A DNA stretch of 64,000 nucleotides from an uncultured Acholeplasma sp. (GCA_964648225.1 CAZYKH010000001.1:135959-199958), one strand, 5' to 3'; positions 1 to 39,398 are shown, counted from the stretch's first letter. Numbers and translations are program-made. The notes: generated by a model from the sequence alone, not told the origin.

Positions 1-349
1 CATAAATACGACTCATAAATTTAGAATCAAATAATCTATCACCTTCAAGATAAGTCTTCTTAATAGACTCGTAAATCGCTTGATTACCAACAATTGTTAC
101 TTTATAACCGCCATATAACCAAAGTAAGGTTTTTACTAAACGGTCTGCAAAAAATAAGTTTTGTTGTAATTTTTGAGGGTCTTTAAAAATGTTGGTTGTA
201 TAACTTTCGTTAAAGCCATCCATTCTTTCAACAACAACTGTTAATGCTTCATAATCATTAGATGCCAGTACTTCCTCTTTAAATTGATTAAAATAAAGTA
301 TGGCTGGTTCATATGTAGGATCTAGTTTTAATTTATTTTTTAATGCCAT
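1..349 (-). CDS. hypothetical protein, N-terminal ~116 codons only (runs off the left window edge); last visible gene of the nagB operon
   Basis: Truncated, so absent from the ORF track. Hand translation of the minus strand from ATG 349..347 gives MALKNKLKLDPTYEPAILYFNQFKEEVLASNDYEALTVVVERMDGFNESYTTNIFKDPQKLQQNLFFADRLVKTLLWLYGGYKVTIVGNQAIYESIKKTYLEGDRLFDSKFMSRIY, open to position 2. It starts 17 nt after the nagB stop. No family recognised with confidence; it does not look like NagA. Confidence 0.5.
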   Translation of the reverse strand, partial: MALKNKLKLDPTYEPAILYFNQFKEEVLASNDYEALTVVVERMDGFNESYTTNIFKDPQKLQQNLFFADRLVKTLLWLYGGYKVTIVGNQAIYESIKKTYLEGDRLFDSKFMSRIY

Positions 350-366
350 CAATATATACCTGCTTT

Positions 367-1089
367 CTATTTTAATTTTGATGCTGCTGCTTCATCTAAA
401 TAGATGACTACATCTTTATGTTTTTGTAAAATCGATGCTGGTAAACTTTCATCTACTGGGCCATGAATCATACCATAAACAGCTTCTGCTTTTTGTTCAC
501 CAGTTGCTATTAATATGATTTTAGATGCACGCATAATATCTTGAATACCCATGGTAATGGATTGTGTAGGTACATCATCGATTGAGTCAAACATTCTAGA
601 ATTATCTTCAATTGTTGATAATGCAAGATCCGTTTGATGGGTTGTGGAGTCAAATGGTGTGCCAGGTTCATTAAACCCAATATGACCATTTGAACCTAAT
701 CCTAGTAATTGAATATCCACTTGATGTGCGTCCAATGCTTTTTGGAAAGTTTGAATTGCTTCTTTCGGTTCTAACGTCCCACTTGGAATAAAAGTATTTT
801 CTAATTTGATATCAATGTGATCAAATAATTGATTTCTCATAAAGTAAGCGTAAGATGCTTCATGTGTTTCATCTAAACCAATGTATTCATCTAAGTTAAA
901 TGTTGTTATATCCTTAAATGATACTTGTTTGTTTTTGTATGCTTCAATCAAATTTTTATATAAGGGAATTGGTGTTGTACCTGTTGCTAACCCTAATGTC
1001 ATATTCGGCTTTTCGTTAATTGCCTTGATATAAAAATCTGATACCGACCTATATAAGGTTTCTTTATCTTTAAAAATTTCTACTTTCAA
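367..1089 (-). CDS. nagB: glucosamine-6-phosphate deaminase
   Basis: 240 aa with [15 protein letters not shown] and [12 protein letters not shown] motifs typical of NagB. Confidence 0.95.
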
Positions 1090-1093
1090 TCTA

Positions 1094-1558
1094 TCAACCT
1101 CTTATTAATCTATTGTATACATTGCCTTCTTTTTCAATGACTATTGCATCCACGGTTTTTCTATAAAAATCTAGGACGCCCTCGCCTGCACCACCGATGA
1201 TTGCATAACCGTAACCATCATGATACATAGCCTCTAAAGTATGTAAAATTAAAGCCTTCCCTATATTTTTCCCGCGTAAAGTTTGGTCAACACCGATTGG
1301 ACCAAAATAGCCTTTTGCTGTTGCATCATAAGCTGCGAAACCAACAATTTTATTTTCGTGTAATGCAACAAAACATGTTGGTTGGCTCTTATAAAGCGCT
1401 GCTTTGGCTTCTGCAGCCCAACCTTTTGAGAAGTTATTTTCGACAAATGTGATAATTTTATCACTATTTGGGGAAAGTGCTCTAACAATTATAACATCTT
1501 TTGCAGGCATTTTCATATTAAAATCTAAATTATATAAATGAACTAACATATCTTTCAT
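1094..1558 (-). CDS. GNAT family N-acetyltransferase
   Basis: 154 aa with a GNAT motif-A-like [11 protein letters not shown] core. Wedged between murQ (1-nt gap) and nagB (4-nt gap). Confidence 0.7.
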
Positions 1559-1559
1559 A

Positions 1560-2477
1560 TTAAATATCTCCTAAAGTCATAGAATATTTGAGTGCTTCTC
1601 TTATATTACCATTAAACCTGTTTAACACTTTATCAATTTCTTCACTATCATCAATTTTTGAGATAATTGCGAAAATTGCATGTTTAACAGATTTAAATTT
1701 ATCGATATATAGTTTGGCAACATCTTCACCAACACCAGTAACTTCAACAACAATACCAACGGCACGAGATACAAGTTTATCGTTACTCATTTGAATATCA
1801 ATCATGAGGTTTTCATAAACTTTGCCAAGTTTTACCATGGTTGCTGTTGAAATCATGTTTAAAATTAGTTTTTGTGCTGTACCTGATTTCATACGTGTAG
1901 AACCAGTAAGTGGTTCTGCACCAGTGACTGCCTCTATTGGAAAATCAACAATATTAGATAACGGTGCATTTTCAGAAGTTGTAATACCACCTGTTTTAGC
2001 ACCAATGGATTTTGCATATTTCATGGCTGCAATAACATAAGGTGTACGACCACTTGCCGTTAGTCCTACAACAATATCTTGTGCACTAAAGTTGTAGTTT
2101 TTAAGATCTTCAACGCCAGCTTCTTCATTATCTTCTGCACCTTCTACAGCAATTCTTAGCGCTCTATCGCCACCGGCAATAACACCAATGACCATATCTT
2201 CTGCTACACCAAAGGTTGGTACACATTCGGATGCATCTAAAACACCCAGGCGACCAGATGTGCCGGCTCCAATATAAAATAGTCTACCACCATCTGCTAA
2301 TCTTTTAGAGATTTCGTCTACTAAGTTTGCAATCTTATCAATTTCTTTTTCGACTGCAAGCGGAACCTTTTTGTCTTCATTATTAAACATCGTTAATATT
2401 TCTTTTGTTGAGCTCACATCTAAGTTTTTAGTTAGTTTATTACGCTGTTCAGTTGTAATAGATTTTATGTCTACCAT
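1560..2477 (-). CDS. murQ: N-acetylmuramic acid 6-phosphate etherase
   Basis: 305 aa; SIS-domain etherase signature FYIGAGTSGRLGVLDASECVPTFG and a TTEQRN N-terminus. Confidence 0.95.
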   Translation of the reverse strand: MVDIKSITTEQRNKLTKNLDVSSTKEILTMFNNEDKKVPLAVEKEIDKIANLVDEISKRLADGGRLFYIGAGTSGRLGVLDASECVPTFGVAEDMVIGVIAGGDRALRIAVEGAEDNEEAGVEDLKNYNFSAQDIVVGLTASGRTPYVIAAMKYAKSIGAKTGGITTSENAPLSNIVDFPIEAVTGAEPLTGSTRMKSGTAQKLILNMISTATMVKLGKVYENLMIDIQMSNDKLVSRAVGIVVEVTGVGEDVAKLYIDKFKSVKHAIFAIISKIDDSEEIDKVLNRFNGNIREALKYSMTLGDI

Positions 2478-2482: not shown

Positions 2483-3367
2483 TTATTCCTTTCCTTTGGA
2501 TAGTTTAGATAGTATATAACCGCCATATACCGCTTCTTTAACATCCCGATTTAATATGTAATTTACTTTATTTTTATTTAATATATTTAAGACTTCATCT
2601 TTTAAATTTGGTGCGGATTCTAAAAATCCGCCACGTAAGGCAATCATCCACTGTTTTGTAGTGTTAATAGATTTAGAAACTTCGATAATACTTTGTGCAA
2701 TTAATTTAGCTTGAACTTGTATTTTTTCTAAAACATATGGATGTTGGTGGTTTGTAATATTTCTTGCAAGTTTGGCTATATCTTGTTTTTTCACCTTGTG
2801 TGTATAACCTATAATATCTTCGTTTGTTGTAAGATTTAAATCGTTTAATAAACTTTGTTGTACTTCATTTAAAGGTTTACCATAATCTAAATGATGTAGA
2901 CAATCTTTAAAGATATCCATAACGAAGTTATATGCAGAGCCTGGATCGCCAAATAGATGTCCATAACCACCATAGCGTTTCATTTGACCATCCACTAAAC
3001 TATACACGATACTTCCAGTACCACCTACAACATAAATTAATGGGGTTTTCGCATCATATGCTGAGTAAAGTCCTAAGTGTGCATCTGGATAAATGAAAAC
3101 ACGTGTATGATAAGTTTTTTCCAAATCTTTTATTAAGTTATCTTTGTTTGGAACCATACTATAACCTGAAAGTCCGATATGAATGCTTTGAACATCTTCT
3201 AGATTCATGTCATTAAGCGTGGTTTTTAAATTATCTAATGCATCTTTTACATCGACTGCAAAATTACTAGATCCTTTCATAACACGCTGAAGTTCTTGAC
3301 CATTTTCATCATATAAGACTGCTAAGGTTTTAGTGCCTCCACCATCAATGCTTACTATCTTACTCAT
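2483..3367 (-). CDS. BadF/BadG/BcrA/BcrD-type ATPase; putative GlcNAc/MurNAc 6-kinase (MurK-like)
   Basis: N-terminal IVSIDGGGTKT phosphate-1 motif and GGTGS motif of ASKHA BadF-type kinases. The ORF track starts at TTG 3373. ATG 3367 gives an 8-nt ATGAGTAA overlap with the nagZ stop, the same junction type as the two upstream genes. Start uncertain by 2 codons. Confidence 0.75.
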   Translation of the reverse strand: MSKIVSIDGGGTKTLAVLYDENGQELQRVMKGSSNFAVDVKDALDNLKTTLNDMNLEDVQSIHIGLSGYSMVPNKDNLIKDLEKTYHTRVFIYPDAHLGLYSAYDAKTPLIYVVGGTGSIVYSLVDGQMKRYGGYGHLFGDPGSAYNFVMDIFKDCLHHLDYGKPLNEVQQSLLNDLNLTTNEDIIGYTHKVKKQDIAKLARNITNHQHPYVLEKIQVQAKLIAQSIIEVSKSINTTKQWMIALRGGFLESAPNLKDEVLNILNKNKVNYILNRDVKEAVYGGYILSKLSKGKE

Positions 3368-4931
3368 AAACAATCGGCGAAACTCCTTTTGGTTTAAGTG
3401 TACCTTCTAAATACTTAACAACCGCTTCAATAGAGTTTGGTGTGTATTCATAAAAGGCTACATAATTTTTAATATTTTTTGTGTAATATAAATCATATGG
3501 ATTTCTTAAGGCTAAAACATGTAAGTCTTTGTTTAACGCACTTAAGTTATCAATAAGTTCAATTTGACTTTGATAAACATTTCCATTATACGATGTATAA
3601 ACTATTTGGTCAAAGTCTTGCGCGGTTGAGACTAACTGCTTTCTTTGTGATTCATTTGGATTAACATTTGCTTCAAGTACTGTCACATCTTTGAAATTTT
3701 GGCGTAAGCGACGTGCTAGTGTTGATTTATGTGAGTCTTCATCAGCAATGGTAGTAGCTTCAGGGTTGGTAGAAATAACTAATGTCTTACCACTTAATTT
3801 AAATGGATTTCCTTTAATTAAAGTCACTGCATCTTCTACAACTTGACGTGAAAACAATTTAGAACTCTCAGATTCAACATCCGCTTTAACATCTTCATAA
3901 GTACGTGTTAAATCAACATTTAGTTTTTCTTTATACTTTAAAGTACGTGCAACACGTTCATTTAAAGTATCCATAGATAACTCACCGGTTTTTAGTGCTT
4001 TGTTTAAGCGATCAGATGCACCAATTTGATATGGTAGATCATGACAGATACATACAAGGTTTGCACCCGCATTGACAGTCATTAAAGTCGCTTCAATCGT
4101 ACCGTAATTATCATGGATTGCTTTCATTTCAATACCATCGGTAATAATTAAACCTTCAAAGCCCATTTCTTCACGTAATAAACCTGTTAAAGCACGTTTT
4201 GATAATGTAACAGGTAAACCATTTTCAGTTAAATGCGTAAAGTTAATATGTGCTGACATAATCGCATCAATACCTGCTTTAATCGCCGCTTTAAATGGTT
4301 TAAATTCAAACTTTTCTAATTCAGATAATGGTTTTTCTACTTTTGGTAGTGCTAAGTGTGAGTCTACATGTGTATCGCCGTGACCTGGAAAGTGTTTTGC
4401 TGTTGCTACAATATGGTTTTGTAAACCTTCAATATACGCATTACCAAATGCTGCAACTTTATCTGGGTTATCTGAAAAACTACGTACACCAATGACTGGA
4501 TTTTTCGGATTATTATTGACATCTAATACTGGTGCTAAATCCATGTTAATACCTAAGTCAATTAATGTTTTACCCATTAAATCACCAATTTTATAAGCAT
4601 TATCTACTTCATTGGTTGCAGCAATGGTCATGGCTCCAGGGAAAAATGTTGCATCCTCAAAAATACGTGTGACCATACCACCTTCTTGATCAATAGTAAT
4701 ATATAGTGGTATACCCATTTCTTCCATTGCTATTTTTTGTAAATCTTGGTTTAACTTAAATAATTGTTCTGCTGATTCTACGTTTCTTGAAAATAGTAAA
4801 ATGTTACCTACTTTATATTCACGGATAAGTTTTTCAATTTCTGGTGTGACTGTTGTACCGTAAAAACCAGCAACAATCAGTTGTCCAATTTTTTCTTGAG
4901 TTGTTAATTTATTCATATCAAATTTACGCAT
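3360..4931 (-). CDS. nagZ: glycoside hydrolase family 3 beta-N-acetylglucosaminidase, no signal peptide
   Basis: GH3 motifs KHFPGHGDTHVDSH and GLIITDGIEM. Start moved from 4991 to ATG 4931 (MRKFDMNKLTTQEKIGQLIV), which has AGGAGG 10 nt upstream and overlaps the namZ stop by 8 nt. Confidence 0.9.
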   Translation of the reverse strand: MRKFDMNKLTTQEKIGQLIVAGFYGTTVTPEIEKLIREYKVGNILLFSRNVESAEQLFKLNQDLQKIAMEEMGIPLYITIDQEGGMVTRIFEDATFFPGAMTIAATNEVDNAYKIGDLMGKTLIDLGINMDLAPVLDVNNNPKNPVIGVRSFSDNPDKVAAFGNAYIEGLQNHIVATAKHFPGHGDTHVDSHLALPKVEKPLSELEKFEFKPFKAAIKAGIDAIMSAHINFTHLTENGLPVTLSKRALTGLLREEMGFEGLIITDGIEMKAIHDNYGTIEATLMTVNAGANLVCICHDLPYQIGASDRLNKALKTGELSMDTLNERVARTLKYKEKLNVDLTRTYEDVKADVESESSKLFSRQVVEDAVTLIKGNPFKLSGKTLVISTNPEATTIADEDSHKSTLARRLRQNFKDVTVLEANVNPNESQRKQLVSTAQDFDQIVYTSYNGNVYQSQIELIDNLSALNKDLHVLALRNPYDLYYTKNIKNYVAFYEYTPNSIEAVVKYLEGTLKPKGVSPIVYE

Positions 4932-6057
4932 AAAGCTTGAACCTCCTAATTGATTGTTCAAATATTTTTTCATCTTGTTTAAACCCTTCAAATATGAGGT
5001 CTAAATCCACACTTGTTTTTAACTTATTATCACCAGTTAATAAATCAATCATTTGATTGCTACCTTCAGTCCAGGGGACTCGAAATTCAAACTCTTTATA
5101 ATCTTTTCTAATTAAATCAAGAAGTTTGTAACCAAATTTTACAGGTTCAAATATGTTTTTATCTCTTAAAAATATTTCTATACCAGAACAATTTTTCCCT
5201 TCATGTTTACTAAAATTCGGAATAAAATGTACTGGTCTAACTAATATGCCCGGTGTTTGCCAAGCACTCACCTTTTTAGCGAGATCATCTGCATCGATAA
5301 ACGGTGCACCAATCATACTAAATGGTCTGGTTGTGCCACGACCTTCACTAACGTTTGTGCCTTCAAACACACAAGTACCTAAATAAATGTGTGCACTATC
5401 TAAAGTAGGAATATTTGGACTTGGTGCTAACCAAGGTAGGTTATAGTCCATAAAATCTTTATCATAGCTATAACCTGTCATTGGTATTACCGTTAAGTCA
5501 CAACCAATATTTTGTACTTCATTAAAATATAATGCAAGTTCACCTATGGTCATGCCATAACGTTGTAGGATTGGATAATACCCAACAAATGAACGGTATT
5601 TTAAATCTAAAATATTACCTTCAAGTCGATGTCCTACCGGATTTGGTCTATCAAATACAACAAATTTAAGTCCATGTTCTTTTGCTGCTTGCATCGCATG
5701 ACTCATTGTATAAATGTATGTATAAAATCTCGCCCCAACATCTTGCATATCAAAACATAAAACATCAACATTTTTAAGCATCTCTACATTAGGTCTTCTG
5801 TTTTTACCGTATAGTGAATGTACTTCTAAGCCCAGTGCTTTATCAAAGTAGCTTTCAACATGAACACCTGCTTCTGCATCTCCACGTATACCGTGCTCAG
5901 GACCATATAAAGTTGTTAAGTTGACCTTCTTACTTAATATATCTGCAGTAAGTTCTAACGATGAATTCACGCCAGTTGGATTGGTAATCAAACCAACACG
6001 TTTACCTTCAAATAGGTGTAAATATTCATCAATACGATCAATACCTAGTTTAAACAT
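4924..6057 (-). CDS. namZ: DUF1343 family exo-beta-N-acetylmuramidase (NamZ/YbbC-like), no signal peptide
   Basis: 377 aa; N-terminus GKRVGLITNPTGV and overall DUF1343 pattern. Sits beside nagZ, as ybbC-ybbD do in Bacillus subtilis. Confidence 0.85.
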   Translation of the reverse strand: MFKLGIDRIDEYLHLFEGKRVGLITNPTGVNSSLELTADILSKKVNLTTLYGPEHGIRGDAEAGVHVESYFDKALGLEVHSLYGKNRRPNVEMLKNVDVLCFDMQDVGARFYTYIYTMSHAMQAAKEHGLKFVVFDRPNPVGHRLEGNILDLKYRSFVGYYPILQRYGMTIGELALYFNEVQNIGCDLTVIPMTGYSYDKDFMDYNLPWLAPSPNIPTLDSAHIYLGTCVFEGTNVSEGRGTTRPFSMIGAPFIDADDLAKKVSAWQTPGILVRPVHFIPNFSKHEGKNCSGIEIFLRDKNIFEPVKFGYKLLDLIRKDYKEFEFRVPWTEGSNQMIDLLTGDNKLKTSVDLDLIFEGFKQDEKIFEQSIRRFKLYA

Positions 6058-6706
6058 TGGCCTTATCCAAACTTTCTATATATTCAACAACATTTCTAAA
6101 GATTAATGCATAAAGTAAAACCATCACTGACATACCCATAAAGACTAAAACTAAGACGAGTAATGGATGTAGGAATAATACAATCGGTATAAATAATATA
6201 ATGACTGCAAGTACCGTTCTAAAGATAAACTTACCACTTAAGAAGAATGCAAACTTAATCATGAGCCATATATTTGTATTTGGATATACAACCATAATTG
6301 GTAATGTATACATTGCAACAAATAAGACACTTAACACCATAATAATCATCACATATTGACCAACTAAGTTCATTGGCGATGGATTGGCTTCTAAAAAGTC
6401 ATTGTAGATTGTTAAGTTAATGACGCCGACAAAAATAGCTGCTGCTAAAATAAATCCGATTTTTAATTTTTGTTTAAAATCTTCTATAAAAAACTTAAAG
6501 TAAGTTTTAAAGATTGGTGTTTCTTCTTTTTTCAAGAACTTATGAAACATCTTATATCCAGCAATTAATGCTGGATATAAGGTTACAATTGGTAAGCTTG
6601 TTACAATAATTAATACGTTAATAACAATTAATCGAATAATCCAATCAGCAATTGTATTTAATTTTTGATATAAACTTTTATCATAAGTTTTATTTTCTTT
6701 TTTCAT
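6050..6706 (-). CDS. DUF624 (YesL-like) integral membrane protein
   Basis: 218 aa with about 6 predicted TM helices. The N-terminal pattern is typical of YesL-family proteins that accompany sugar ABC importers. Confidence 0.65.
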   Translation of the reverse strand: MKKENKTYDKSLYQKLNTIADWIIRLIVINVLIIVTSLPIVTLYPALIAGYKMFHKFLKKEETPIFKTYFKFFIEDFKQKLKIGFILAAAIFVGVINLTIYNDFLEANPSPMNLVGQYVMIIMVLSVLFVAMYTLPIMVVYPNTNIWLMIKFAFFLSGKFIFRTVLAVIILFIPIVLFLHPLLVLVLVFMGMSVMVLLYALIFRNVVEYIESLDKANV

Positions 6707-11229: not shown

Positions 11230-11864
11230 CGTCGTAACCCCAATTCTTCAATAATTGCTGAGATAAACGCTATAATTTGCTGAATCACATCAAAGAATAG
11301 TAAGCCTAAAAACATCATAACCATCATCGAAACGGCGGTTGCTATAAATGCCATGATGGTTTTTAATAAGCCATATTGATGGATGTTTAAAATACCCATA
11401 AATAACATCCAACCTGTTAAGAAATATGCAATACCCATTGCAAGTGTATAAAATGCCATTTCATCTAAGGTTAAGAAGTTTGAGATAAATAATGCTGGAT
11501 AACCAATGATGATTACTGGAAATAAAGCATATCCAGTGACCATTAATATTTCTTTAAACTTACCTTTACCTTCCATTAATGTTGTCACAGACCAGTTGGC
11601 TGTAACAAATAATATCACAAGTAAGCCAACCACAAATATTTCTTGTAAATTGTTGATCATCATTGGATTACGTTCATTAATTAAAAAGCTTTCATATTGA
11701 TAGGTTAAAATGCGTAGTAAAGCAAACAAAGCGATATAAACTAATGCAACGCTCAGTTTACCTTTCTTTTCTGTTTTAAATTCATCATACCCATCAAATG
11801 GATGCATTAATATATATTTAGGAAAGGATAGGTAATCATTAATAATAAGTTTAAGTTTGTTCAT
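11226..11864 (-). CDS. Yip1-domain integral membrane protein
   Basis: 212 aa with five hydrophobic segments and a Yip1-like topology. 1-nt overlap upstream and 4-nt overlap downstream. Confidence 0.6.
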
Positions 11865-13675: not shown

Positions 13676-13684
13676 ATAATCCTC

Positions 13685-15500: not shown

Positions 15501-15513
15501 ATAGATCCTCTTT

Positions 15514-22803: not shown

Positions 22804-22832
22804 ATTATATGCTCAACTGAAAGCGCTGTCAA
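22804..22832 (-). promoter_or_regulatory. consensus sigma-A-type promoter for the 822-aa gene
   Basis: Minus strand TTGACA (22832..22827), 17-nt spacer, TATAAT (22809..22804). Both hexamers match consensus perfectly. About 45 nt upstream of the ATG. Confidence 0.7.
22818..22831. promoter_or_regulatory. cre box (14/14 to consensus) overlapping the -35 element and spacer
   Basis: Plus strand TGAAAGCGCTGTCA matches TGWAANCGNTNWCA at all 14 positions. Confidence 0.55.
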
Positions 22833-32238: not shown

Positions 32239-33533
32239 TTGTTATACACTCCATAGTATGTTAAATATTCTTTGTGCTTATCATATAATGCATTAAATGC
32301 ATCCTTGGTTGATTTAAATGATTTAGATAAGGGGTGAATTTGAAAAGCTAACAATGCCTTATTTAAATCTTTTTCATAAATTGCATCACATAGTAATTCT
32401 TCATATGCTTTTAAGTGTTGAACAATACCACGCACATGTAAAGGTAGTTCACCAATATGAACGGGTATTGGTCCATCTTTAGTCATGCGAGCGGTAATTT
32501 CAATAGACGTTTCATCGGGTATACCAACGATATGACCGTGGTTTACTGTATGAATGACATGGTAGTTTTTCTTGTTATTTTTAATAGAGTCCATAATTTC
32601 AACTGCGGTTTGAGCAAAACTATGATCTAAGAGCTTTTGCATGTCTTTAAAAACATTTAAAGTATTTTCATCAGCATATTTTTTATATAACAAGTCATTA
32701 AATTCAATCATTTGATTGGTTAGTATTTTTTTATTTTTTTGGTTATCTAAAAATGTTTTTGTAACGACTTCATCTTGATAATAATACTTTAAATTAGGAT
32801 GTGGATAACATCCTAAACGTTGTAGATTTTCTAAAGCCATCGGATGATTTTTTGGTAAAAATCCACCGGATAATAACTTTGGTAATTTATCTTTTCCTTT
32901 ATGATAAACTTTAAGCATAAAGGATAGTTCGCTTAAACCAGCATAATATGGGACAAGTTCATTAGGATGTGCTTTTAGTTTATCTATAACTTCCTTAGTT
33001 ATTTGATTTGGCTCATTTGATAGACCAATATAACGGTCAAACTCACTAAAACGACATACCGCTTCACTAATAATACCGGTTGGGTTTGTTGCATTAATCA
33101 CCCATGCTTTTGGGGCTAGTTCTTTAATGTCTTCGATCATTTCATAAATTACCGGAACAGTTCTTAAGGCATTAAATAACCCACCAATGCCTATCGATTC
33201 ATGACCAAGCATATTAAATTCAGCCGGTATGGTTTCGTCATAAAAACGTGCTTGCATGTGACCAACTCTAATTTGAATAAGAACAAAATCAGCATCCAAT
33301 AGACCATGTCTTTGGTTTAAGCTAGATGTAACTGAAATTGGTATGTTGTGATGTTTTAACATTCTTTGAATGAAATTGGTCATAATGTCTAAGCGTTCTT
33401 CACTTGTTTTTAAATCAATTAAAACTACTTCTGTAAATTTTAAATCATCATAATGTTTGATGATGTATTCAAATACTTCTGCTGTATTCGTTGATGCGCC
33501 ACCTAATATGGCCAGTTTTAGTTTTGTTTGCAT
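32235..33533 (-). CDS. GH4-like NAD-dependent glycosidase homologue with non-canonical metal-site residues
   Basis: 432 aa. By eye it aligns along its length to E. coli ChbF-type GH4 (KLAILGGASTNTAE, DADFVLIQIRVG, WVINATNPTGIISEA). It has IGLSNEP where GH4 has G(V/L)CN(I/V)P, and AGLSE where GH4 has GLNH. Confidence 0.75.
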   Translation of the reverse strand: MQTKLKLAILGGASTNTAEVFEYIIKHYDDLKFTEVVLIDLKTSEERLDIMTNFIQRMLKHHNIPISVTSSLNQRHGLLDADFVLIQIRVGHMQARFYDETIPAEFNMLGHESIGIGGLFNALRTVPVIYEMIEDIKELAPKAWVINATNPTGIISEAVCRFSEFDRYIGLSNEPNQITKEVIDKLKAHPNELVPYYAGLSELSFMLKVYHKGKDKLPKLLSGGFLPKNHPMALENLQRLGCYPHPNLKYYYQDEVVTKTFLDNQKNKKILTNQMIEFNDLLYKKYADENTLNVFKDMQKLLDHSFAQTAVEIMDSIKNNKKNYHVIHTVNHGHIVGIPDETSIEITARMTKDGPIPVHIGELPLHVRGIVQHLKAYEELLCDAIYEKDLNKALLAFQIHPLSKSFKSTKDAFNALYDKHKEYLTYYGVYNK

Positions 33534-33549: not shown

Positions 33550-34698
33550 CTAGGTAAAGTATGAAACTGTACCTAACACTACATGTTTTTTAGCGCCGGT
33601 TGCGCTTGGTAAATTGGCTGTTTGTTGAAATAATGTTTGATTACCCAATACAATGAAGGCTAACGCTTCTTTATAATCACTTGATACCCCCACATCGTCA
33701 CTAGATAATACTTTAATATCTGGTAAAGATTTTTGTATAAAATTCATTAAAAATTGATTATGTACACCGCCACCAGAAATAATTAATTCATCGACTTCGT
33801 GTTTGTTTAAGATAAATTGTTTAATATTCGATATCATCGTTGATGCTGTTGCAACCGTTAAAGTATGAATGATATCTTCTGGTGCATGATTTTTGTATTT
33901 TGTCATTAAAGTTTGTGTGTATGCCCCACCAAATTGTTCTCTACCACAAGATTTTGGTGGCATTTGGTGAACAAATGGGTGCTGCATAATTTCATCATAT
34001 AACGGTAAGATGAGTTGACCTTTTTTTGCAATTTGACCACCATCATCATAAGGTTTGTTGTATAACTTTTCCATAGCATAATTAATCATCATATTGCCTG
34101 GTCCTGTATCAAATGCATAGACGTCATGTTCATTTTTCGTTTTTGGTAAATACGTAATATTAGAAATACCACCAATATTTTGTGCAATGCGTGATTTATC
34201 GCTACTTGACAATAATAGATAATCTACATAAGGTACAAGTGGTGCACCTTGTCCGCCTTGAATCATATCAGCAATTCTAAAATCAGAAACTACTGTTGTT
34301 TCTGTCAGTCCTGCAATGACTGAGCCACTACCTAATTGTAAAGTAGATGGTAATCTTGTATCTTCTATTTCGCTTTGATGGTAAACAGTTTGTCCGTGCG
34401 ATGCAATAAAGTTTAAGCTCGATGGGCTTAATTTTAATTCTTTACACAAACTGATAACACAACTTGCATAGAGCCGACCCAACTCAAAATGAAGACTCGA
34501 TACGTCTTTAACTGTTAGTTGGTCTGTCACTGCAAGTTTTACCTTTTCAAGTAACATTGGTGGATAATCAAATGTTTTACCTGCAATCATTTCTATTTTA
34601 GTTGTTAAACCAGTACCTGAGATGGTTGCTATCACTACATCAATGCCATCAAGCGATGTACCACTCATAATACCGCATGCTAACTTAGACTGATTCAT
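33550..34698 (-). CDS. anmK: anhydro-N-acetylmuramic acid kinase
   Basis: GIMSGTSLDGIDV N-terminal motif and AnmK-like length. Start moved from 34731 to ATG 34698, which has AAGAGG 8 nt upstream; the putative -10 element overlaps 34731. Confidence 0.9.
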   Translation of the reverse strand: MNQSKLACGIMSGTSLDGIDVVIATISGTGLTTKIEMIAGKTFDYPPMLLEKVKLAVTDQLTVKDVSSLHFELGRLYASCVISLCKELKLSPSSLNFIASHGQTVYHQSEIEDTRLPSTLQLGSGSVIAGLTETTVVSDFRIADMIQGGQGAPLVPYVDYLLLSSSDKSRIAQNIGGISNITYLPKTKNEHDVYAFDTGPGNMMINYAMEKLYNKPYDDGGQIAKKGQLILPLYDEIMQHPFVHQMPPKSCGREQFGGAYTQTLMTKYKNHAPEDIIHTLTVATASTMISNIKQFILNKHEVDELIISGGGVHNQFLMNFIQKSLPDIKVLSSDDVGVSSDYKEALAFIVLGNQTLFQQTANLPSATGAKKHVVLGTVSYFT

Positions 34699-34731
34699 AA
34701 TCAAAACCTCTTTAATTTGTGATATTTTCAT

Positions 34732-34760
34732 TATATAGTATTAATTTGTAAAATCTTGTA
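34732..34760 (-). promoter_or_regulatory. putative promoter of the anmK-to-amidase operon
   Basis: Minus strand TTACAA (34760..34755), 17 nt, TATATA (34737..34732). Confidence 0.45.
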
Positions 34761-34769
34761 AGCGCTTAA
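34756..34769. promoter_or_regulatory. cre-like box overlapping the anmK -35 element
   Basis: Plus strand TGTAAGCGCTTAAT, 12/14 to TGWAANCGNTNWCA, with a palindromic TAAGCGCTTA core. Confidence 0.45.
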
Positions 34770-34804
34770 TTTTTGTAAGGTTCTTTCATACTTAGAAAAT
34801 ACTT

Positions 34805-34832
34805 TTCAAAAAAACACCTTTCAAAAGGTGTT
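34805..34832 (-). terminator. rho-independent terminator of murR
   Basis: Stem AACACCTT / AAGGTGTT with a 4-nt loop, followed on the minus strand by TTTTTTTG. Confidence 0.8.
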
Positions 34833-34843
34833 TTCGTTTTTAG

Positions 34844-35689
34844 TTATCGTTTAAATTTTTTAAATGTTCGATATGTAGTTTCTAATGCTTGCACAGATCG
34901 GTCAATATCGGTATACGCACATTTTGCATACAATGCATCTATAACAGACATTTGAGAAATTCTTGATGTCATCGCTGCACTTCTAAATTCTGACTCTAAT
35001 GCCGATGTATATAATACAACATCAGATATATCTGCTAAAATACTGGAACCAATTCTAGTAATACTAATAATTGGTGTTTTATTTTCTTTGGCTAATAATG
35101 CTGAAGAAACTATTTCTTTTGTCTTACCAGAGTTTGAAACAAATATAACAACATCCTTATGATTAATAAATGATGCATCGACTAATTGATCGTGTGATTC
35201 ACCTTGTGCAATACAAAACTTATTAATACGTCTAAGTTTCATTTCCAAATCTTTACATACTAAATAACTAGAACCTTTACCAAAAATTAAAATCTTTCGA
35301 GCACTCATTATTAATTGGGCAGCTTTAGTATATGTTTTTTCATCATAAAGATTAATGGTCTCTTCTAAAGCTCTAATATTATTTTCAATTGCCTTGCGTC
35401 CACTATTTTGATCTTTAATTAAAATAACGTCTGTATACTCACTAGTTTCAGGTATTTCTACTTTAGAATTGGCTAGAATAAAGTCAATCTTAAAGTCTTT
35501 AAACCCTTTATATCCTAATTTTTTACACATTCTAACAACGGATGCAGGTGAAGTATAAGCGGCTTCAGCAATTTTTTCTACACTAAAATCTTTGATTTGA
35601 GTTTTGTTTTCAATCAAATAATCTAAAACAATGCGTTCGGCCATACTTAGTGCTTCTTTATTTTTTAGCATGTTTAACATTACACTCAT
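34844..35689 (-). CDS. murR: MurR/RpiR family transcriptional regulator (HTH_6 + SIS)
   Basis: 281 aa. N-terminal RpiR-type HTH (IAEAAYTSPASVVRMCKKLGYKGFKDFK) and a C-terminal SIS domain (ILIFGKGSSYLV). Confidence 0.85.
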   Translation of the reverse strand: MSVMLNMLKNKEALSMAERIVLDYLIENKTQIKDFSVEKIAEAAYTSPASVVRMCKKLGYKGFKDFKIDFILANSKVEIPETSEYTDVILIKDQNSGRKAIENNIRALEETINLYDEKTYTKAAQLIMSARKILIFGKGSSYLVCKDLEMKLRRINKFCIAQGESHDQLVDASFINHKDVVIFVSNSGKTKEIVSSALLAKENKTPIISITRIGSSILADISDVVLYTSALESEFRSAAMTSRISQMSVIDALYAKCAYTDIDRSVQALETTYRTFKKFKR

Positions 35690-35770: not shown

Positions 35771-37174
35771 TTAAATGACCTTTTTAGGATTTAAAATATG
35801 TTTTGGATCAAAGACTGATTTAATGCCTCGCATCAGTTCAATTTGTTCTTTACCTAAGAGTTCATGCATGTATGCTTTTTTGGCAATACCTATACCATGC
35901 TCTCCTGAGACCCTACCACCATAACTAAAAGCTTTTTCATAAAGTAAGTCAAAAGCATTTTTTAATACTTTTTGCCAGGAAGTTTCATCCATATTATCCT
36001 TACATAAATAAATGTGTAGGTTACCATCTCCAATATGGCCAAAATATGGGATTCTAACATTAAGTTTTTTACTCACTTCATTCACATAATTTAAAAAGCT
36101 TTCAATATGTGATCTTGGTAAAACGACATCACATTCATCAATAAAGTCAGAGCTTGCCTTAATGGCATTTAAAAATCCACCACGTATATTCCATATATTG
36201 GAACGATGTTTTTGTGGGTCAACGATTAAGGCACTTTTTGCACCATATGTTTCTAACATAAGTTTTTTTACATGTTCTAAATCTTTATCAAGTGATGACT
36301 CATTACTACTATCATAACTTAATAGCAAGTAAGCATTGGCACCTTCACCTTCAACTTTTGTACCAAAAAAGGTTTCACTATACTCCACTGCTTGCTTTTC
36401 AAAAAACTCAACGGCCGTTGGTAGTATAAAGTCTTTAATGAGTTTAGGTGATGCATGAATGGCATCACTTCTTTTATCAAAAGCAACCAACATAGATTTT
36501 GTGTACTTTGGTTTTGGAATGAGTTTTAAGGTTGCACTGACAATAATTGCTAGGGTACCTTCACTACCTATGATTAAGTCTTTAAGTCCATAACCGGTCG
36601 AATCCTTAACCACTTTTCCACCTAGTGTTAAAAGCTCACCCTTAGGGGTCACTACTTCTAGTGCGCGCACCCATGCTCTTGTTGTACCATATTTAATGGC
36701 ACGCATTCCACCAGCATTGGTTGAAATATTACCACCAATCGATGCACGTTTTTCACCAGGATCTGGTGCATAAAATAATCCTTTAGATTCTACTGCATCA
36801 TAGATTTCAAATAACCTAACGCCTGGTTCGACTGTCAAGGTTAAATTAACTTCATCAAGTTCGATGATTTTATTCATCCCAGACATATCTAATAATATAC
36901 CACCTAAAATAGGCACAGCAGCACCGACTAAGCCGGTGCCTGCGCCTCTTACTGTTACGGGTATGGATGCTTTATAAGCATATGCCATTATTTTTACAAC
37001 TTGATGTTTGTCTTGAATGCGTATATAAATATCTGGCATATGTTGTGCAGTGCCTAATTGATCATGACTATACTTAGGATCAATGTCTTTACCCATTTTT
37101 ATATGATCTGAACCAACAATTTCTTTTAGGTATAAAAAATCATCGGTATTTACTTTTTTATATGTCATCTTCAC
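35771..37174 (-). CDS. FAD-linked oxidase, GlcD / D-lactate dehydrogenase family
   Basis: 467 aa. FAD_binding_4 motifs (VTVRGAGTGLVGAAVP, GGNISTNAGGMRAIKYG) and a C-terminal FAD-oxidase domain (GEHGIG). Confidence 0.85.
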   Translation of the reverse strand: MKMTYKKVNTDDFLYLKEIVGSDHIKMGKDIDPKYSHDQLGTAQHMPDIYIRIQDKHQVVKIMAYAYKASIPVTVRGAGTGLVGAAVPILGGILLDMSGMNKIIELDEVNLTLTVEPGVRLFEIYDAVESKGLFYAPDPGEKRASIGGNISTNAGGMRAIKYGTTRAWVRALEVVTPKGELLTLGGKVVKDSTGYGLKDLIIGSEGTLAIIVSATLKLIPKPKYTKSMLVAFDKRSDAIHASPKLIKDFILPTAVEFFEKQAVEYSETFFGTKVEGEGANAYLLLSYDSSNESSLDKDLEHVKKLMLETYGAKSALIVDPQKHRSNIWNIRGGFLNAIKASSDFIDECDVVLPRSHIESFLNYVNEVSKKLNVRIPYFGHIGDGNLHIYLCKDNMDETSWQKVLKNAFDLLYEKAFSYGGRVSGEHGIGIAKKAYMHELLGKEQIELMRGIKSVFDPKHILNPKKVI

Positions 37175-37177
37175 TAC

Positions 37178-38746
37178 CTAATTAGTTTGAGCAATATTTC
37201 TAAATAGATCTAATATCGCACGGACATCATCATTGTGGACATTATATGTAAATGTATCACTAAATGGTGAGGTTGCATAGTTTGGATTACCTTTAACCCG
37301 TACTTGGATTTCATGGGTTCCGGCTGCTAATATTAAAGGTATGGATTCTTTCGTAACATAAGTTTCTCGTCCATTAATCTTTAATATATATTGCATGTTT
37401 TCATTATTACCTGTGAAATGGAATACCCCTTCACCATCTACATATAACCCAGTTGGTGCTTCATAAGATGCTCTTGTATCTGGATAAGGTATTTCATAAA
37501 ATGTTGGTTCTAAATTACCTCTTGCAAATAATAAACCATTAGAAATGGATCGTATTGTCCCATCAGAGAACGTATTAAGACCATCATATTCACCTGTTTC
37601 ATCATTTCTTAATAACATTGTTGATGAACCACCACCATCTAAGTTAAAGGCATTAACTGCACCGTGAAGCTTCATTAATTCCCCTAATTCACCATATTTA
37701 ACACCATTTTTACCAGCTATAATATCACGACCATCAACAACGATAAAGAAAATTGTACCATCTTCTTTTTCACCAACTGCAGTTCTTGGGTGACGGAAGT
37801 GTGCCATATTATTACTTGGTAGCGATTGGAAGTAATCGTGTTGAACAACACCATTAAGAACTAGTGGTGCACCAGCACCAATAGCGTGTCTGACATTTTC
37901 AAAACCATTACCTAATAGTTCTTGAACAAGTAACGTATCAGTTGGTTGAATTAAATCTTCATCCTGAAACATTTTACCAACTAAAATAAATGATTTTTCT
38001 TCAACCGTAACTGCTTCAGTTGTTTTATAATCCAGTTGACCTTTAGAATAATTAGCATTACCATTAGCATCTGTTTTAATATCGCTTGCTTTTACGACGA
38101 CCTTAATATAATCTTCTGGAATTTCATCTTCAAAAGATGTATGGAAGATTGCTACCTCTAAATCATTTTGCGGTAATTGATTAATGCGATCAATTTTAAT
38201 ACGTTTTTTAAGTTCTCTAAACTCATTTAAAATATTTAAGTGTTGTCCTAAAAAGCTTGGATTGCCATGAACCATATCACCATCTGTTGTAAAACCTATC
38301 ACACTACGGTGAATGCTTGCTCCAACACCACGGTGTTTAACTTCATAATCTACAATATGTGTATGTGTTGAACGTCCGGTATTATTGATATCATAAAAGT
38401 CACCATTCACACCTGCAGTAATTTCTAACTGTGGAAATCTTTGTTGCGCAGTTGCGATATGTACTCTTAAATTAGACATACCCCATTCAAATGGGCGATA
38501 ATTATCACTAGCAATAACATTATAATCTGTTGTTTTGAGGTTAACTCCTAGATAATTATAATGTTGTTCTTTTTGTTCCTCATTCCATGTTAACAAACCT
38601 GTTCTGCGAATATGTTCTAAACCGTGAACATAACGTCTTTCATGAGTTAATATATCAAATCTAAAATCATTAGCACTATATGTATTCGGTGTTAATGATA
38701 ACAGCAGCATAATTGATACAAATATTGTTATAAATAGTTTTTTCAT
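37178..38746 (-). CDS. secreted phosphodiester glycosidase family protein (DUF2233 / NAGPA-like) with C-terminal Ig-like domain
   Basis: 522 aa. Signal peptide ending TYS|AND, RTAVGEKEDGTIFFIVVDGR and NLDGGGSSTM motifs characteristic of DUF2233. Confidence 0.75.
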   Translation of the reverse strand: MKKLFITIFVSIMLLLSLTPNTYSANDFRFDILTHERRYVHGLEHIRRTGLLTWNEEQKEQHYNYLGVNLKTTDYNVIASDNYRPFEWGMSNLRVHIATAQQRFPQLEITAGVNGDFYDINNTGRSTHTHIVDYEVKHRGVGASIHRSVIGFTTDGDMVHGNPSFLGQHLNILNEFRELKKRIKIDRINQLPQNDLEVAIFHTSFEDEIPEDYIKVVVKASDIKTDANGNANYSKGQLDYKTTEAVTVEEKSFILVGKMFQDEDLIQPTDTLLVQELLGNGFENVRHAIGAGAPLVLNGVVQHDYFQSLPSNNMAHFRHPRTAVGEKEDGTIFFIVVDGRDIIAGKNGVKYGELGELMKLHGAVNAFNLDGGGSSTMLLRNDETGEYDGLNTFSDGTIRSISNGLLFARGNLEPTFYEIPYPDTRASYEAPTGLYVDGEGVFHFTGNNENMQYILKINGRETYVTKESIPLILAAGTHEIQVRVKGNPNYATSPFSDTFTYNVHNDDVRAILDLFRNIAQTN

Positions 38747-38765
38747 TTACTTAACCTCCTATCAT

Positions 38766-39398
38766 TTACGCCGGTAAAACAAGATTAACTTGTCCGATAT
38801 TTGATATTGTTAAAGTCACCAAGTAAGTTGTCTCATTGACAACAATATCAAATATAATTTCATGGATATGGTTTTCATTGGCACGAAGCTGTAGTACTTC
38901 AATTGAATCTACTGCTTCATGAAGACCAATAAAACCATCTAATGATGCTAAATCATCTGATTTCATAATGTATGATGTTTCGTTATTTACGCTAAATTGT
39001 TCGAACTCAAAACCATAGAAGAATAAGTCGGATGATTTAAAGTTTGACTCACTGACTACGAATGTATTACCTTGTTTTTCATACATCTTAGATTTTGAGC
39101 CACTATTATCATAGTAAGCTTCATAATCACCGTCGATATATTTGACGACATCCCCATCAAAATACATCATAACAATCGTTTCTTTTAATGCTTGATGATC
39201 TTTTACTTTGATTTCTAATTCAAAATTATTTTCATCTAAAAATTGTAAACGTTCATTAAATAACGTTTTGGCTACTTCATCTGGATTATCTGTTCCATCG
39301 CCATTACCGTTACCATCGCCATTACCATTATTAGCTGGTAAACAACCAACAAGTAGTAAACTTAATGCAAAGATGACGGTTAATAATATTTTCTTCAT
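38766..39398 (-). CDS. lipoprotein of unknown function
   Basis: 210 aa with lipobox LLVGC and an NGNGDGNGNGDG linker. First gene of the transcription unit. Confidence 0.7.
   Translation of the reverse strand: MKKILLTVIFALSLLLVGCLPANNGNGDGNGNGDGTDNPDEVAKTLFNERLQFLDENNFELEIKVKDHQALKETIVMMYFDGDVVKYIDGDYEAYYDNSGSKSKMYEKQGNTFVVSESNFKSSDLFFYGFEFEQFSVNNETSYIMKSDDLASLDGFIGLHEAVDSIEVLQLRANENHIHEIIFDIVVNETTYLVTLTISNIGQVNLVLPA

Follow-up and report, generated by a model that had tools for sequence, protein, structure and literature searches.

A putative locus for peptidoglycan foraging and catabolism in an uncultured Acholeplasma-like bacterium

A window of 64,000 nucleotides from the genome of an uncultured Acholeplasma sp. 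(GCA_964648225.1 CAZYKH010000001.1:135959-199958) carries at its beginning a large locus that probably encodes a system for the foraging and catabolism of peptidoglycan in a wall-less, Acholeplasma-like bacterium. In a first-pass annotation of the window, this locus had been delimited to positions 1 to 39398 and divided into five transcription units. The locus has turned out to be coherent, but it does not start at base 1 because its genes continue past the window edge. The division into five transcription units is plausible and is based on three hairpins and one promoter listed below. Between positions 1 and 44578, all open reading frames (ORFs) of at least 150 amino acids that were accepted as genes are encoded on the minus strand, with most gene junctions in this part overlapping or being only a few bases wide. 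The G+C content is even across the window (31-37%), and no sign of a foreign island was seen. Searches of the ORFs with profile hidden Markov models (HMMs) from Pfam and NCBIfam uphold the gene calls.

The genes for predicted enzymes of N-acetylmuramic acid (MurNAc) as well as N-acetylglucosamine (GlcNAc) catabolism, together with an acetyltransferase gene encoded among them, are the following:

367-1089, minus strand: NagB, glucosamine-6-phosphate deaminase (TIGR00502, 251.6 bits against a cut-off of 236.9; Pfam Glucosamine_iso)
1094-1558, minus strand: GNAT acetyltransferase (Pfam Acetyltransf_1)
1560-2477, minus strand: MurQ, MurNAc-6-phosphate etherase (TIGR00274, 373 bits against a cut-off of 302)
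2483-3373, minus strand: MurK-like sugar kinase of the BadF/BcrAD type (Pfam BcrAD_BadFG, PF01869, 81 bits)
3360-4991, minus strand: NagZ-type β-N-acetylglucosaminidase of glycoside hydrolase family 3 (GH3; PRK05337, 209.5 bits and thus marginally above the cut-off of 207)
4924-6057, minus strand: NamZ, predicted exo-β-N-acetylmuramidase of family GH171 (NamZ_N 273 bits and NamZ_C 146 bits; cut-offs 27 and 25)
33550-34731, minus strand: AnmK, anhydro-MurNAc kinase (NF007142, 537 bits against a cut-off of 435)
35771-37174, minus strand: LctD-type FAD-dependent lactate dehydrogenase (7qh2_C, E 8e-159, 532 bits, residues 3-466 of 467)

MurQ additionally exceeds the cut-off of PRK05441 (398 versus 168 bits) and consists of GKRP_SIS_N and SIS domains, while AnmK also exceeds that of NF007148 (445 versus 387 bits), with profile positions 2-381 of 384 being covered. 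NamZ matches the DUF1343 structure 4k05 from Bacteroides fragilis (E 1.4e-75) as well as 4jja (E 4e-60); its domains and these structure-sequence matches make it a member of GH171, for which exo-muramidase activity is predicted. NagZ carries KHFPGHGDTHVDSH at residue 199, which satisfies the Asp-His motif KH(F/I)PG(H/L)GxxxxD(S/T)H; in the metagenome gene call this protein has 523 amino acids, with a likely start near 4931. For the BadF-type kinase, the best solved relative is 8zo3 (E 3.7e-22), which bears the annotation of a MurNAc/GlcNAc kinase; with the NagK_SO3507 model, the BadF-type kinase reaches 76 bits at a cut-off of 370. Thus, the calls of MurQ, AnmK, and NamZ, and also that of the amidase described below, on which the first-pass annotation had made its interpretation depend, are all borne out by profile HMMs or structure-sequence comparison.

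MurQ, AnmK, and the BadF-type kinase have no export signal even on the longest possible ORFs, and the longest ORFs of the exo-glycosidases NagZ and NamZ have no N-terminal hydrophobic segment, which agrees with their earlier description as lacking export signals. The oxidase had originally been described as a GlcD/Dld-like enzyme that could oxidize the D-lactate released by MurQ. The protein misses the GlcD equivalog (TIGR00387, 360 bits against a cut-off of 568). The idea of D-lactate oxidation has been strengthened, the best solved relative being LctD of the LctBCD/Etf complex from Acetobacterium woodii. A role in disposing of MurQ-derived D-lactate is supported by the fact that the oxidase is a full-length relative of LctD and that etfB and etfA genes precede its orthologue in two relatives, an Izemoplasmatales and a Tenericutes metagenome-assembled genome (MAG). 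There are no Etf genes in the window or in the corresponding loci of A. laidlawii and A. hippikon. The GNAT gene is retained only in the loci of Acholeplasma and Haploplasma; speculatively, its product might re-N-acetylate de-N-acetylated wall sugars.

A second group of genes encodes surface proteins and further glycan-processing proteins:

20288-22756, minus strand: surface protein of 822 amino acids with a signal peptide and a C-terminal transmembrane helix
22906-25974, minus strand: Amidase_2 lipoprotein of 1022 amino acids with four Big_2 domains, a β-helix-like middle part, an Amidase_2 domain, and the lipobox LVAC
25974-27017, minus strand: cytoplasmic serine hydrolase with β-lactamase fold, PBP4B/AmiE-like (PF00144, 156 bits)
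27014-31024, minus strand: dual GHL10 protein of 1336 amino acids, exported, with a C-terminal anchor (PF02638, 342 bits over two stretches)
31021-32238, minus strand: cytoplasmic GHL10 protein of 405 amino acids (PF02638, 218 bits; no signal peptide)
32235-33533, minus strand: NAD-dependent glycosidase of family GH4 (N- and C-terminal GH4 domains of Pfam; no signal peptide)
37178-38746, minus strand: secreted phosphodiester glycosidase of the NAGPA/DUF2233 family (PF09992, 109 bits; signal peptide)
38766-39398, minus strand: lipoprotein of 210 amino acids, first gene of the locus (lipobox LVGC)

The assignments to the families GHL10, Amidase_2, NAGPA/DUF2233, and GH4 made in the first-pass annotation are all confirmed by Pfam. 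The Amidase_2 domain (PF01510, 63 bits; XlyA structure 3hmb, E 5e-18) has kept the zinc ligands of XlyA (His/His/Cys) as well as its catalytic Glu in the motifs H (ITVHDT), E (IAIEM), and H...C (FHQHFSGKHCP). Within residues ~190-660 of the same lipoprotein, a region of about 300 residues shows weak signals of a right-handed β-helix and of the N-terminal domain of hyaluronate lyases, and this middle region could be a second glycan-binding or glycan-cleaving domain. The serine hydrolase has no signal peptide and contains SxxK, YSD, and HTG motifs; its best NCBIfam match is PBP4B with 126 bits, which is under the cut-off. The GH4 protein is most similar to the 6-phospho-β-glucosidases 5c3m and 1s6y (E about 1e-76), and NAGPA matches 3ohg (E 2e-13) as well as the animal NAGPA structure 6pku (E 2e-6).

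The GHL10 domain is known from the autolysin Cwp19 of Clostridioides difficile, which has been shown experimentally to be a lytic transglycosylase releasing 1,6-anhydromuropeptides (PMC6016235). Its proposed active site consists of Trp36, Arg132, Asp195-Asp196-Tyr197, Ser250, Gln295/Tyr297, and Gly328 (PMC5765458). The C-terminal GHL10 domain of the dual protein matches the Cwp19 structure 5oq2 with an E value of 1e-92, and the active-site motifs RAxW, NPYR, HFDDYFY, FG[VI]SP, PQxYW, and GxGxY are present in all three GHL10 domains of the locus. By domain and active-site residues, both GHL10 proteins are therefore predicted lytic transglycosylases of the Cwp19 type. Formation of 1,6-anhydroMurNAc (anhMurNAc) by such domains would explain why AnmK heads the operon that encodes the GHL10 genes.

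No family match was found in Pfam or NCBIfam for the lipoprotein of 210 amino acids, which has an orthologue in A. laidlawii and whose place in A. hippikon is taken by a gene of about its size. The surface protein of 822 amino acids is likewise without a sequence match in Pfam, NCBIfam, or the PDB. It has 150 homologues, and all of those with a named source come from Acholeplasmatales, Izemoplasmatales, or 'Tenericutes'. Its AlphaFold2 model (predicted local distance difference test, pLDDT, 83) shows strings of domains resembling immunoglobulin (Ig) and cadherin domains; a Foldseek search with the whole model found no enzyme fold, only cadherin- and Ig-like matches with very low template-modelling (TM) scores. 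According to this model, a function in binding is probable for the protein. Export or anchoring by signal peptides, lipoboxes, or membrane anchors is predicted for the amidase, the dual GHL10 protein, NAGPA, the 822-amino-acid and 210-amino-acid proteins, and, in the import module described next, for both binding proteins, DUF5696, and the 603-amino-acid protein. These predictions agree with the division into surface and cytoplasmic proteins that had been proposed at first.

The import module lies between the surface protein gene and namZ:

6050-6706, minus strand: DUF624/MusI-like membrane protein with six transmembrane helices (Pfam DUF624; NCBIfam MusI_fam 62 bits, under the cut-off)
6706-8641, minus strand: second pair of ATP-binding cassette (ABC) permeases (6706-7704 and 7694-8641; BPD_transp_1; UgpE/MalG-like and UgpA-like)
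8641-11229, minus strand: membrane-anchored DUF5696 protein (PF18952, E 4e-158; N-terminal transmembrane helix)
11226-11864, minus strand: Yip1-domain membrane protein with six transmembrane helices (Pfam Yip1)
11864-13675, minus strand: exported protein of 603 amino acids (weak TPR signal, weak NHL signal in orthologues; C-terminal transmembrane helix)
13685-15500, minus strand: first pair of ABC permeases (13685-14578 and 14571-15500; BPD_transp_1; UgpE-like and GlcT-like)
15514-18429, minus strand: membrane-anchored solute-binding protein (SBP) of 971 amino acids (SBP_bac_8 and SBP_bac_1 at residues 581-876; N-terminal transmembrane helix)
18512-20095, minus strand: lipoprotein of 527 amino acids with an Ig-like domain, a divergent candidate for a second SBP (lipobox LAAC)

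Two SBPs and two permease pairs had been annotated originally. Both permease pairs, the first of which is 94% identical to that of A. laidlawii, and the 971-amino-acid SBP stand; the latter has an N-terminal extension of about 580 amino acids without a family match. The second SBP does not have an SBP match of its own: the 527-amino-acid lipoprotein had no SBP match in Pfam at E values up to 1 and no BLASTP similarity to the larger SBP. A match to SBP_bac_1 is found in its orthologues from Mariniplasma (59% identical), A. hippikon, and an Izemoplasmatales MAG, and it is these orthologues that suggest a binding function for the lipoprotein. The DUF624 protein is an accessory of sugar ABC importers. 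The genes for the two binding proteins are separated by a spacer of 82 nucleotides (18430-18511) containing a long, near-perfect palindrome, CCTTCCTTATG...CATAAGGAAGG, which could be an element for mRNA processing or stability that sets the level of the first binding protein relative to the rest of the operon.

DUF5696 is probably a membrane-anchored glycosidase, judging from its AlphaFold model (pLDDT 83; predicted TM score, pTM, 0.84). In a Foldseek search, 5opq was the best match (E 2.5e-29), and 5wzq was also found, with TM scores on the target of 0.68-0.70 at a sequence identity of 10-13%. The model is nearest to GH129 (3,6-anhydro-D-galactosidase and α-N-acetylgalactosaminidase), while GH101, GH36, and GH31 are less close. 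Many Asp and Glu residues are invariant in the DUF5696 family. No match for DUF5696 was found in the full texts of the literature searched.

Transcription of the locus appears to be organized by the following features:

20210-20223: catabolite-responsive element (cre)-like box in the promoter region that follows the terminator at 20242-20272
20242-20272, minus strand: intrinsic terminator 3' of the gene for the 822-amino-acid protein
22804-22832, minus strand: perfect sigma-70 promoter (TTGACA-17-TATAAT) with a cre-like box at 22818-22831 overlapping the -35 box
34757-34770: cre-like palindrome in the promoter region of anmK
34811-34834, minus strand: terminator-like palindromic hairpin 3' of murR
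34844-35689, minus strand: RpiR/MurR-family regulator (HTH_6 and SIS domains; 94% identical to A. laidlawii)
39502-39531, minus strand: strong two-way terminator hairpin, which closes the upstream DUF2130 gene and forms the upstream boundary of the locus

All promoter regions of the locus except that of murR itself, four out of five, contain a cre-like palindrome matching TGWNANCGNTNWCA. The box at 22818-22831 is a perfect match, and those at 22852, 20210, 34757, and 39425 have two mismatches each. In A. laidlawii, the boxes have identical promoter offsets, and the promoter regions of A. hippikon contain comparable ones; the perfect box before the surface protein gene is kept in A. laidlawii, the Izemoplasmatales MAG, and the Tenericutes MAG. 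Across the whole window, neither the cre consensus nor AAGCGYTT is more frequent than in shuffled sequence; only the promoter position and the conservation of the boxes are meaningful. Since the neighbouring rhamnose operon is preceded by the same box (12962-13256 on the longer contig L002), a function as a locus-specific operator was rejected in favour of general catabolite control. The boxes suggest CcpA-type catabolite control in acholeplasmas, which fits a nutritional role. A scan of the window with Rfam revealed no riboswitch in the locus; only a T-box and a tRNA were found, both outside of it. An ORF of 200 amino acids on the plus strand (20178-20780), which overlaps the 3' end of the 822-amino-acid protein gene and the terminator, is not among the public gene calls of the contig and is probably not a gene.

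Relatives of the locus were sought with three of its proteins, DUF5696, the dual GHL10 protein, and the 822-amino-acid protein. The nearest named relatives are Acholeplasma laidlawii, A. oculi, A. hippikon, A. equirhinis, A. equifetale, Mariniplasma anaerobium, and Haploplasma modicum, and they are accompanied by many MAGs labelled Acholeplasmataceae, Izemoplasmatales, or "Tenericutes". The source is very probably an Acholeplasma species outside the GTDB species representatives, the best of those found being 70-75% identical. In A. laidlawii 8195, the locus occupies the corresponding chromosomal site, lying downstream of FakA as well as DUF2130, and its proteins are 52-94% identical to those of the window. 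Acholeplasma is placed in the class Mollicutes, a group defined by having neither a peptidoglycan wall nor the capacity to synthesize wall precursors. Tenericutes are described as having no peptidoglycan synthesis, and cultured Izemoplasma shows no wall in transmission electron microscopy (PMC8397711). For a wall-less host, the gene set points to foraging rather than to recycling. In a 13C-probing study with pig slurry, labelled dead biomass of Escherichia coli was assimilated first by Acholeplasma (PMC4628116).

The whole locus is present in four other genomes, namely A. laidlawii, A. hippikon, the Tenericutes MAG M17C-02, and the Izemoplasmatales MAG D1M01_69, although the two Acholeplasma genomes are short of one or two accessory genes. 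The conserved order, in which brackets mark variable genes, is lipoprotein, NAGPA, (EtfB-EtfA), LctD, MurR, AnmK, GH4, GHL10, dual GHL10, (β-lactamase fold), (Amidase_2), a surface protein of 8xx amino acids, the SBP with Ig-like domain, and the large SBP. The second half is even more widespread: in a tblastn matrix, the block from the SBPs to MurQ/NagB is kept in about 50 species representatives where the flanking DNA was sufficient, comprising the two SBPs, permeases, the 603-amino-acid protein, Yip1, DUF5696, permeases, DUF624, NamZ, NagZ, the kinase, MurQ, and usually NagB. A profile scan for DUF5696 with one genome per species gave 72 loci, about 64 of which come from this lineage according to their taxon label or an identity of at least 39% to the window protein. 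The recurrence of the same order in independent genomes means that the clustering is not due to chance, and the locus is a lineage-wide, vertically kept trait. In the Izemoplasmatales MAG, anmK is followed by a second BadF kinase gene, and a glucosaminidase gene (PF01832) is located upstream. One ENA scaffold with the locus terminates within the dual GHL10 gene.

At the edges of the locus, two further genes are found:

1-349, minus strand: 5' part (first ~116 codons) of a gene for a protein of 452 amino acids, cut by the window edge, with a weak ROK/ASKHA sugar-kinase-like signal
39535-40902: DUF2130 gene, the upstream neighbour also in A. laidlawii, without a functional tie to the locus

The gene for the 452-amino-acid protein, which is slightly under the cut-off for Pfam ROK (21.6 bits), is also present in A. 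laidlawii. On the longer contig L002, where the stretch downstream of nagB covers 10741-20723, this gene starts 18 nucleotides past nagB and is followed by a gene for a PIG-L-family deacetylase of 282 amino acids (Pfam, 47.9 bits), which is a possible substitute for the absent NagA. After a gap of about 300 nucleotides, a rhamnose operon follows outside the window, in which RhaA, a class II aldolase, an FGGY kinase, a 454-amino-acid protein, an SBP, and a permease are encoded. The rest of the window contains housekeeping genes, including those for PolC, LeuRS, and PheST. A T-box leader (Rfam RF00230, 103.9 bits; 51835-52051, minus strand) is located directly 5' of pheS and pheT (50769-51788 and 48415-50769), as is ordinary in Firmicutes-derived genomes. 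A single tRNA gene (42681-42763, minus strand) lies between the genes for 6-phosphogluconate dehydrogenase and a FakA-like protein.

Based on these predictions, the following route from the sacculus to central metabolism can be proposed. Outside the cell, the Amidase_2 lipoprotein would strip off the stem peptides, and the dual GHL10 enzyme would cut the glycan strands into fragments ending in anhMurNAc. The 822-amino-acid surface protein may bind the sacculus with its Ig/cadherin-like domains, and NAGPA may, as a speculation, act on the GlcNAc-1-phosphate linkages through which teichoic acids are attached to MurNAc. The two binding proteins would feed the two permease pairs with oligosaccharides, and the ATPase would be encoded elsewhere. 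In the cytoplasm, NagZ and NamZ would alternately remove GlcNAc and MurNAc from the imported oligosaccharides, while the PBP4B/AmiE-like hydrolase may remove leftover peptides. AnmK is predicted to convert anhMurNAc into MurNAc-6-phosphate, and the MurK-like kinase to phosphorylate MurNAc as well as GlcNAc. MurQ would then split MurNAc-6-phosphate into GlcNAc-6-phosphate and D-lactate. A deacetylase, for which the PIG-L protein encoded beyond the window is a candidate, would together with NagB lead to fructose-6-phosphate, and LctD would oxidize the D-lactate.

The overall enzymology of this route is that of the known MurNAc catabolism in E. coli, Bacillus subtilis, and Tannerella and of the MurK route of Clostridium acetobutylicum. 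With the murQ-murR-murP-amiE-nagZ-namZ cluster of B. subtilis, the locus shares the joint encoding of MurQ, a MurR-family regulator, NagZ, NamZ, and a β-lactamase-fold protein of the AmiE/PBP4B type, as well as the principle of trimming strands by alternating exo-GlcNAc-ase and exo-MurNAc-ase steps (PMC8054146). In contrast to B. subtilis, where MurP, an EIIBC transporter of the phosphotransferase system (PTS), is responsible for the uptake of MurNAc, ABC permeases are encoded here; no PTS genes are present among the ORFs of at least 150 amino acids in 1-44578 or among ten further ORFs scanned up to 62206. AmiE, NagZ, and NamZ of B. subtilis are secreted with signal peptides (PMC8054146), whereas their counterparts in the locus have none. 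Since NagZ, NamZ, and the β-lactamase-fold protein would thus be cytoplasmic, oligosaccharides rather than MurNAc must be imported. Compared to B. subtilis, the locus additionally encodes AnmK, three GHL10 domains, GH4, LctD, NAGPA, the Amidase_2 lipoprotein, and the DUF5696 module, and its host, being very probably wall-less, would have no wall to recycle.

With the AmpG/NagZ/AmpD/AnmK/MurQ route of E. coli, the predicted pathway has in common the formation of anhMurNAc by lytic transglycosylases, a cytoplasmic NagZ, and the reactions of AnmK, leading to MurNAc-6-phosphate, and of MurQ. The PBP4B gene yfeW of E. coli is linked to murQ in murQ-murP-yfeW (PMC5061867), as is the PBP4B-like gene in the locus, and AmiE of B. 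subtilis has an analogous place in its operon. However, AmpD of E. coli is a cytoplasmic amidase and not an extracellular lipoprotein, the lytic transglycosylases of E. coli are of the Slt/Mlt type and not of the GHL10 type, and E. coli reuses the products for wall synthesis, whereas here they would be burnt via NagB and LctD. A permease of the major facilitator superfamily (AmpG type) was not found among the ORFs of the locus. The differences from the routes of B. subtilis and E. coli that the first-pass annotation had emphasized are therefore real: there is no MurP, NagZ, NamZ, and the AmiE-like protein lack export signals, and ABC permeases replace PTS or AmpG.

Further comparisons concern individual parts of the pathway. 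Cwp19 of C. difficile is a single-domain autolysin that is held on its own wall by CWB2 repeats, whereas the locus encodes one two-domain, membrane-anchored enzyme and a second one predicted to be cytoplasmic, and there would be no own wall to lyse. Tannerella forsythia, with MurT, MurK, MurQ, and NamZ, also uses foreign wall sugars and a kinase instead of a PTS upstream of MurQ (PMC5790795). Unlike the bacterium considered here, for which MurNAc would only be food, T. forsythia needs MurNAc for building its own wall; the type of transporter differs as well, and the extracellular lytic enzymes and the AnmK/LctD branch are additional in the locus. Among wall-less bacteria, the use of MurNAc from bacterial debris has been predicted for Spiroplasma and Hepatoplasmataceae, which have MurP-MurQ (PMC3563533, PMC10928387). 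These systems consist only of a PTS and an etherase for the free monosaccharide, and neither enzymes that degrade murein nor AnmK, NamZ, NagZ, or ABC import are reported for these organisms.

Several points weigh against a function in peptidoglycan foraging. All functional steps are read from family memberships, export signals, and conservation, and the wall-less nature of the host, although very probable, is judged from its relatives; some Izemoplasmatales-related genomes carry genes for peptidoglycan synthesis (PMC7761423). No canonical nagA gene and no gene for an ABC ATPase (ABC_tran) are present in the locus. Of the parts of a CUT1-type carbohydrate importer, the locus encodes an SBP and four permeases; a shared ABC ATPase that is encoded elsewhere is usual in Firmicutes. 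The regulator reaches 157 bits with the MurR/RpiR models, compared to an equivalog cut-off of 378. As A. laidlawii 8195 has neither the amidase nor the LctD gene and A. hippikon lacks the gene for the β-lactamase-fold protein, these three functions are accessory. There is no firmly assigned step for the β-lactamase-fold protein, GH4, the cytoplasmic GHL10 protein, the GNAT protein, and the proteins of 452, 210, 603, and 822 amino acids. Finally, DUF5696 resembles α-glycosidases, whereas murein has no α-linkage, and the module of SBP, permeases, and DUF5696 seems to be a portable import unit with a substrate that is set by the context and is not intrinsically murein.

The latter conclusion results from the occurrence of this module outside the mollicutes. 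Distant DUF5696 genes (25-29% identity) are found in MAGs of Ruminococcaceae, Lachnospiraceae, Clostridiales, and Anaerolineae, where they belong to an eight-gene module with a large SBP, two permeases, an NHL-Yip1 fusion, DUF5696, and again two permeases; in Clostridia, Yip1 is fused to the NHL protein. Six loci with this module, including one from a Eubacteriales MAG and one from an unclassified MAG, are devoid of MurNAc genes. Within 10 kb of the module in these MAGs, there are no genes for NamZ, NagZ, or MurQ; its neighbours are DUF4434, an AraC regulator, another SBP, an ROK kinase, and a (metallo)phosphoesterase. The module looks like an uncharacterized double-permease ABC importer with a built-in glycosidase-like protein, which in mollicutes appears to be transcriptionally fused to the MurNAc genes.

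Among the alternatives to a primarily nutritional system, the most viable one is that the extracellular arm is mainly a weapon that lyses living neighbours and feeds on the released material, with wall-sugar catabolism being a side benefit. Murein hydrolases cannot harm a wall-less cell, many Ig-like binding domains are found on the large lytic enzymes anchored at the surface, and Cwp19 causes autolysis in C. difficile (PMC6016235). In addition, Acholeplasma took up label from bacterial biomass within 2 h in the isotope-probing study, although the cells used there were dead (PMC4628116). The lytic genes share their cre-like boxes and their locus with a full catabolic pathway, which argues for a nutritional role, and the locus encodes no toxin, secretion, or contact apparatus. 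A weapon is therefore a possible but doubtful main function, and one that overlaps with foraging rather than contradicting it.

It is less likely that the 39 kb do not constitute one system and that an importer with DUF5696 for an α-linked glycan merely lies beside a MurNAc operon and surface hydrolases. The solitary modules of Ruminococcaceae, Lachnospiraceae, Clostridiales, and Anaerolineae without MurNAc genes are in line with such a separation, and so is the modelled fold of DUF5696, which resembles the α-glycosidases of GH129, GH101, and GH36. In about 50 genomes of Acholeplasmatales and Izemoplasmatales, however, the module is directly followed by DUF624-NamZ-NagZ-kinase-MurQ with tight junctions and without a terminator. 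Moreover, the locus encodes no other importer for MurNAc, anhMurNAc, or muropeptides, and the promoter 5' of the module has a cre-like box like those of the other units.

Another GlcNAc-rich polymer such as chitin, a matrix of poly-N-acetylglucosamine (PNAG), host mucin, or a glycosaminoglycan is a distinctly unlikely main target, for which the MurNAc genes would be a minor branch. The PNAG-processing domain of PgaB is the closest structural neighbour of the GHL10 domain of Cwp19 (PMC5765458), the amidase protein has the weak hyaluronate-lyase-like and β-helix segments mentioned above, and NagZ, NagB, the kinase, and PIG-L would be of use for GlcNAc of whatever origin. These similarities are outweighed by the MurNAc-specific enzymes MurQ, AnmK, and NamZ, which all score above curated cut-offs and on account of which chitin and PNAG were judged unlikely. 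Furthermore, the Amidase_2 domain, whose zinc ligands are intact, is of the murein amidase type, LctD fits D-lactate, which arises only from MurNAc, and no catalytic domains of chitinases (GH18/19), GH20 enzymes, or lyases were detected with Pfam in the locus. The ordinary recycling of its own wall by a walled Firmicute, which would agree with the overlap between the gene set and the clusters known for recycling in B. subtilis and E. coli (PMC5061867), with the peptidoglycan-synthesis genes of some Izemoplasmatales relatives, and with a view limited to 64 kb of the genome, is very improbable and was rejected on taxonomy, as all close homologues and the flanking synteny belong to Acholeplasma and thus to the Mollicutes, which are defined by the absence of a wall (PMC8397711), and as mur, penicillin-binding protein, and division-and-wall genes are absent from the 64-kb window.

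Peptidoglycan foraging and catabolism thus remains the probable function of the locus. A bolder version of this interpretation, to be regarded as tentative, is that free-living wall-less members of the Acholeplasmatales and Izemoplasmatales are specialized murein eaters, perhaps even killers of walled neighbours, which retained and enlarged an ancestral recycling pathway after the loss of their wall. The locus would then encode several undescribed enzyme activities. According to this version, bacterial NAGPA would cut the GlcNAc-1-phosphate link between teichoic acid and murein and leave a MurNAc-6-phosphate residue in the strand, which GH4 as a 6-phospho-β-muramidase, a functional analogue of MupG, would set free inside the cell. 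The cytoplasmic GHL10 protein would be a cytoplasmic lytic transglycosylase, and DUF5696 would represent a new glycoside hydrolase family within a double-permease importer.

The enzymology of MurNAc catabolism is already known, the use of MurNAc by wall-less mollicutes has been proposed earlier, and the genes have long been present in public genomes. The claim of the first-pass annotation that the combination is not a described system agrees with the literature searched, in which no description was found; a mention in genome papers on A. laidlawii or Izimaplasma is possible. A full-text search for the combination of Acholeplasma, MurQ, and peptidoglycan gave no match, and the hosts of NamZ listed in the NamZ paper are Bacteroidetes, some Firmicutes, Actinobacteria, and γ-proteobacteria, with no mollicutes among them (PMC8054146). 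Apparently undescribed is a large locus that joins extracellular lytic enzymes, ABC import, cytoplasmic exo-glycosidases, the pairing of GHL10 with AnmK, and an LctD outlet. It would represent a third layout of MurNAc catabolism, with oligosaccharides entering through ABC import, NagZ and NamZ located in the cytoplasm, and a GHL10 lytic transglycosylase coupled to AnmK. By guilt by association, it also provides functional hypotheses for DUF5696, bacterial NAGPA/DUF2233, cytoplasmic GHL10 proteins, a GH4 subgroup, NHL-Yip1 proteins, and the 822-amino-acid surface protein, and as A. laidlawii is cultivable, the hypotheses about the locus are directly testable. If the interpretation is true, the locus would be the genetic basis for what free-living acholeplasmas eat and would explain why they were the first consumers of dead bacterial biomass in isotope probing. 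The loss of the wall could then be an advantage, as murein-degrading enzymes may be displayed on the cell surface without self-harm.

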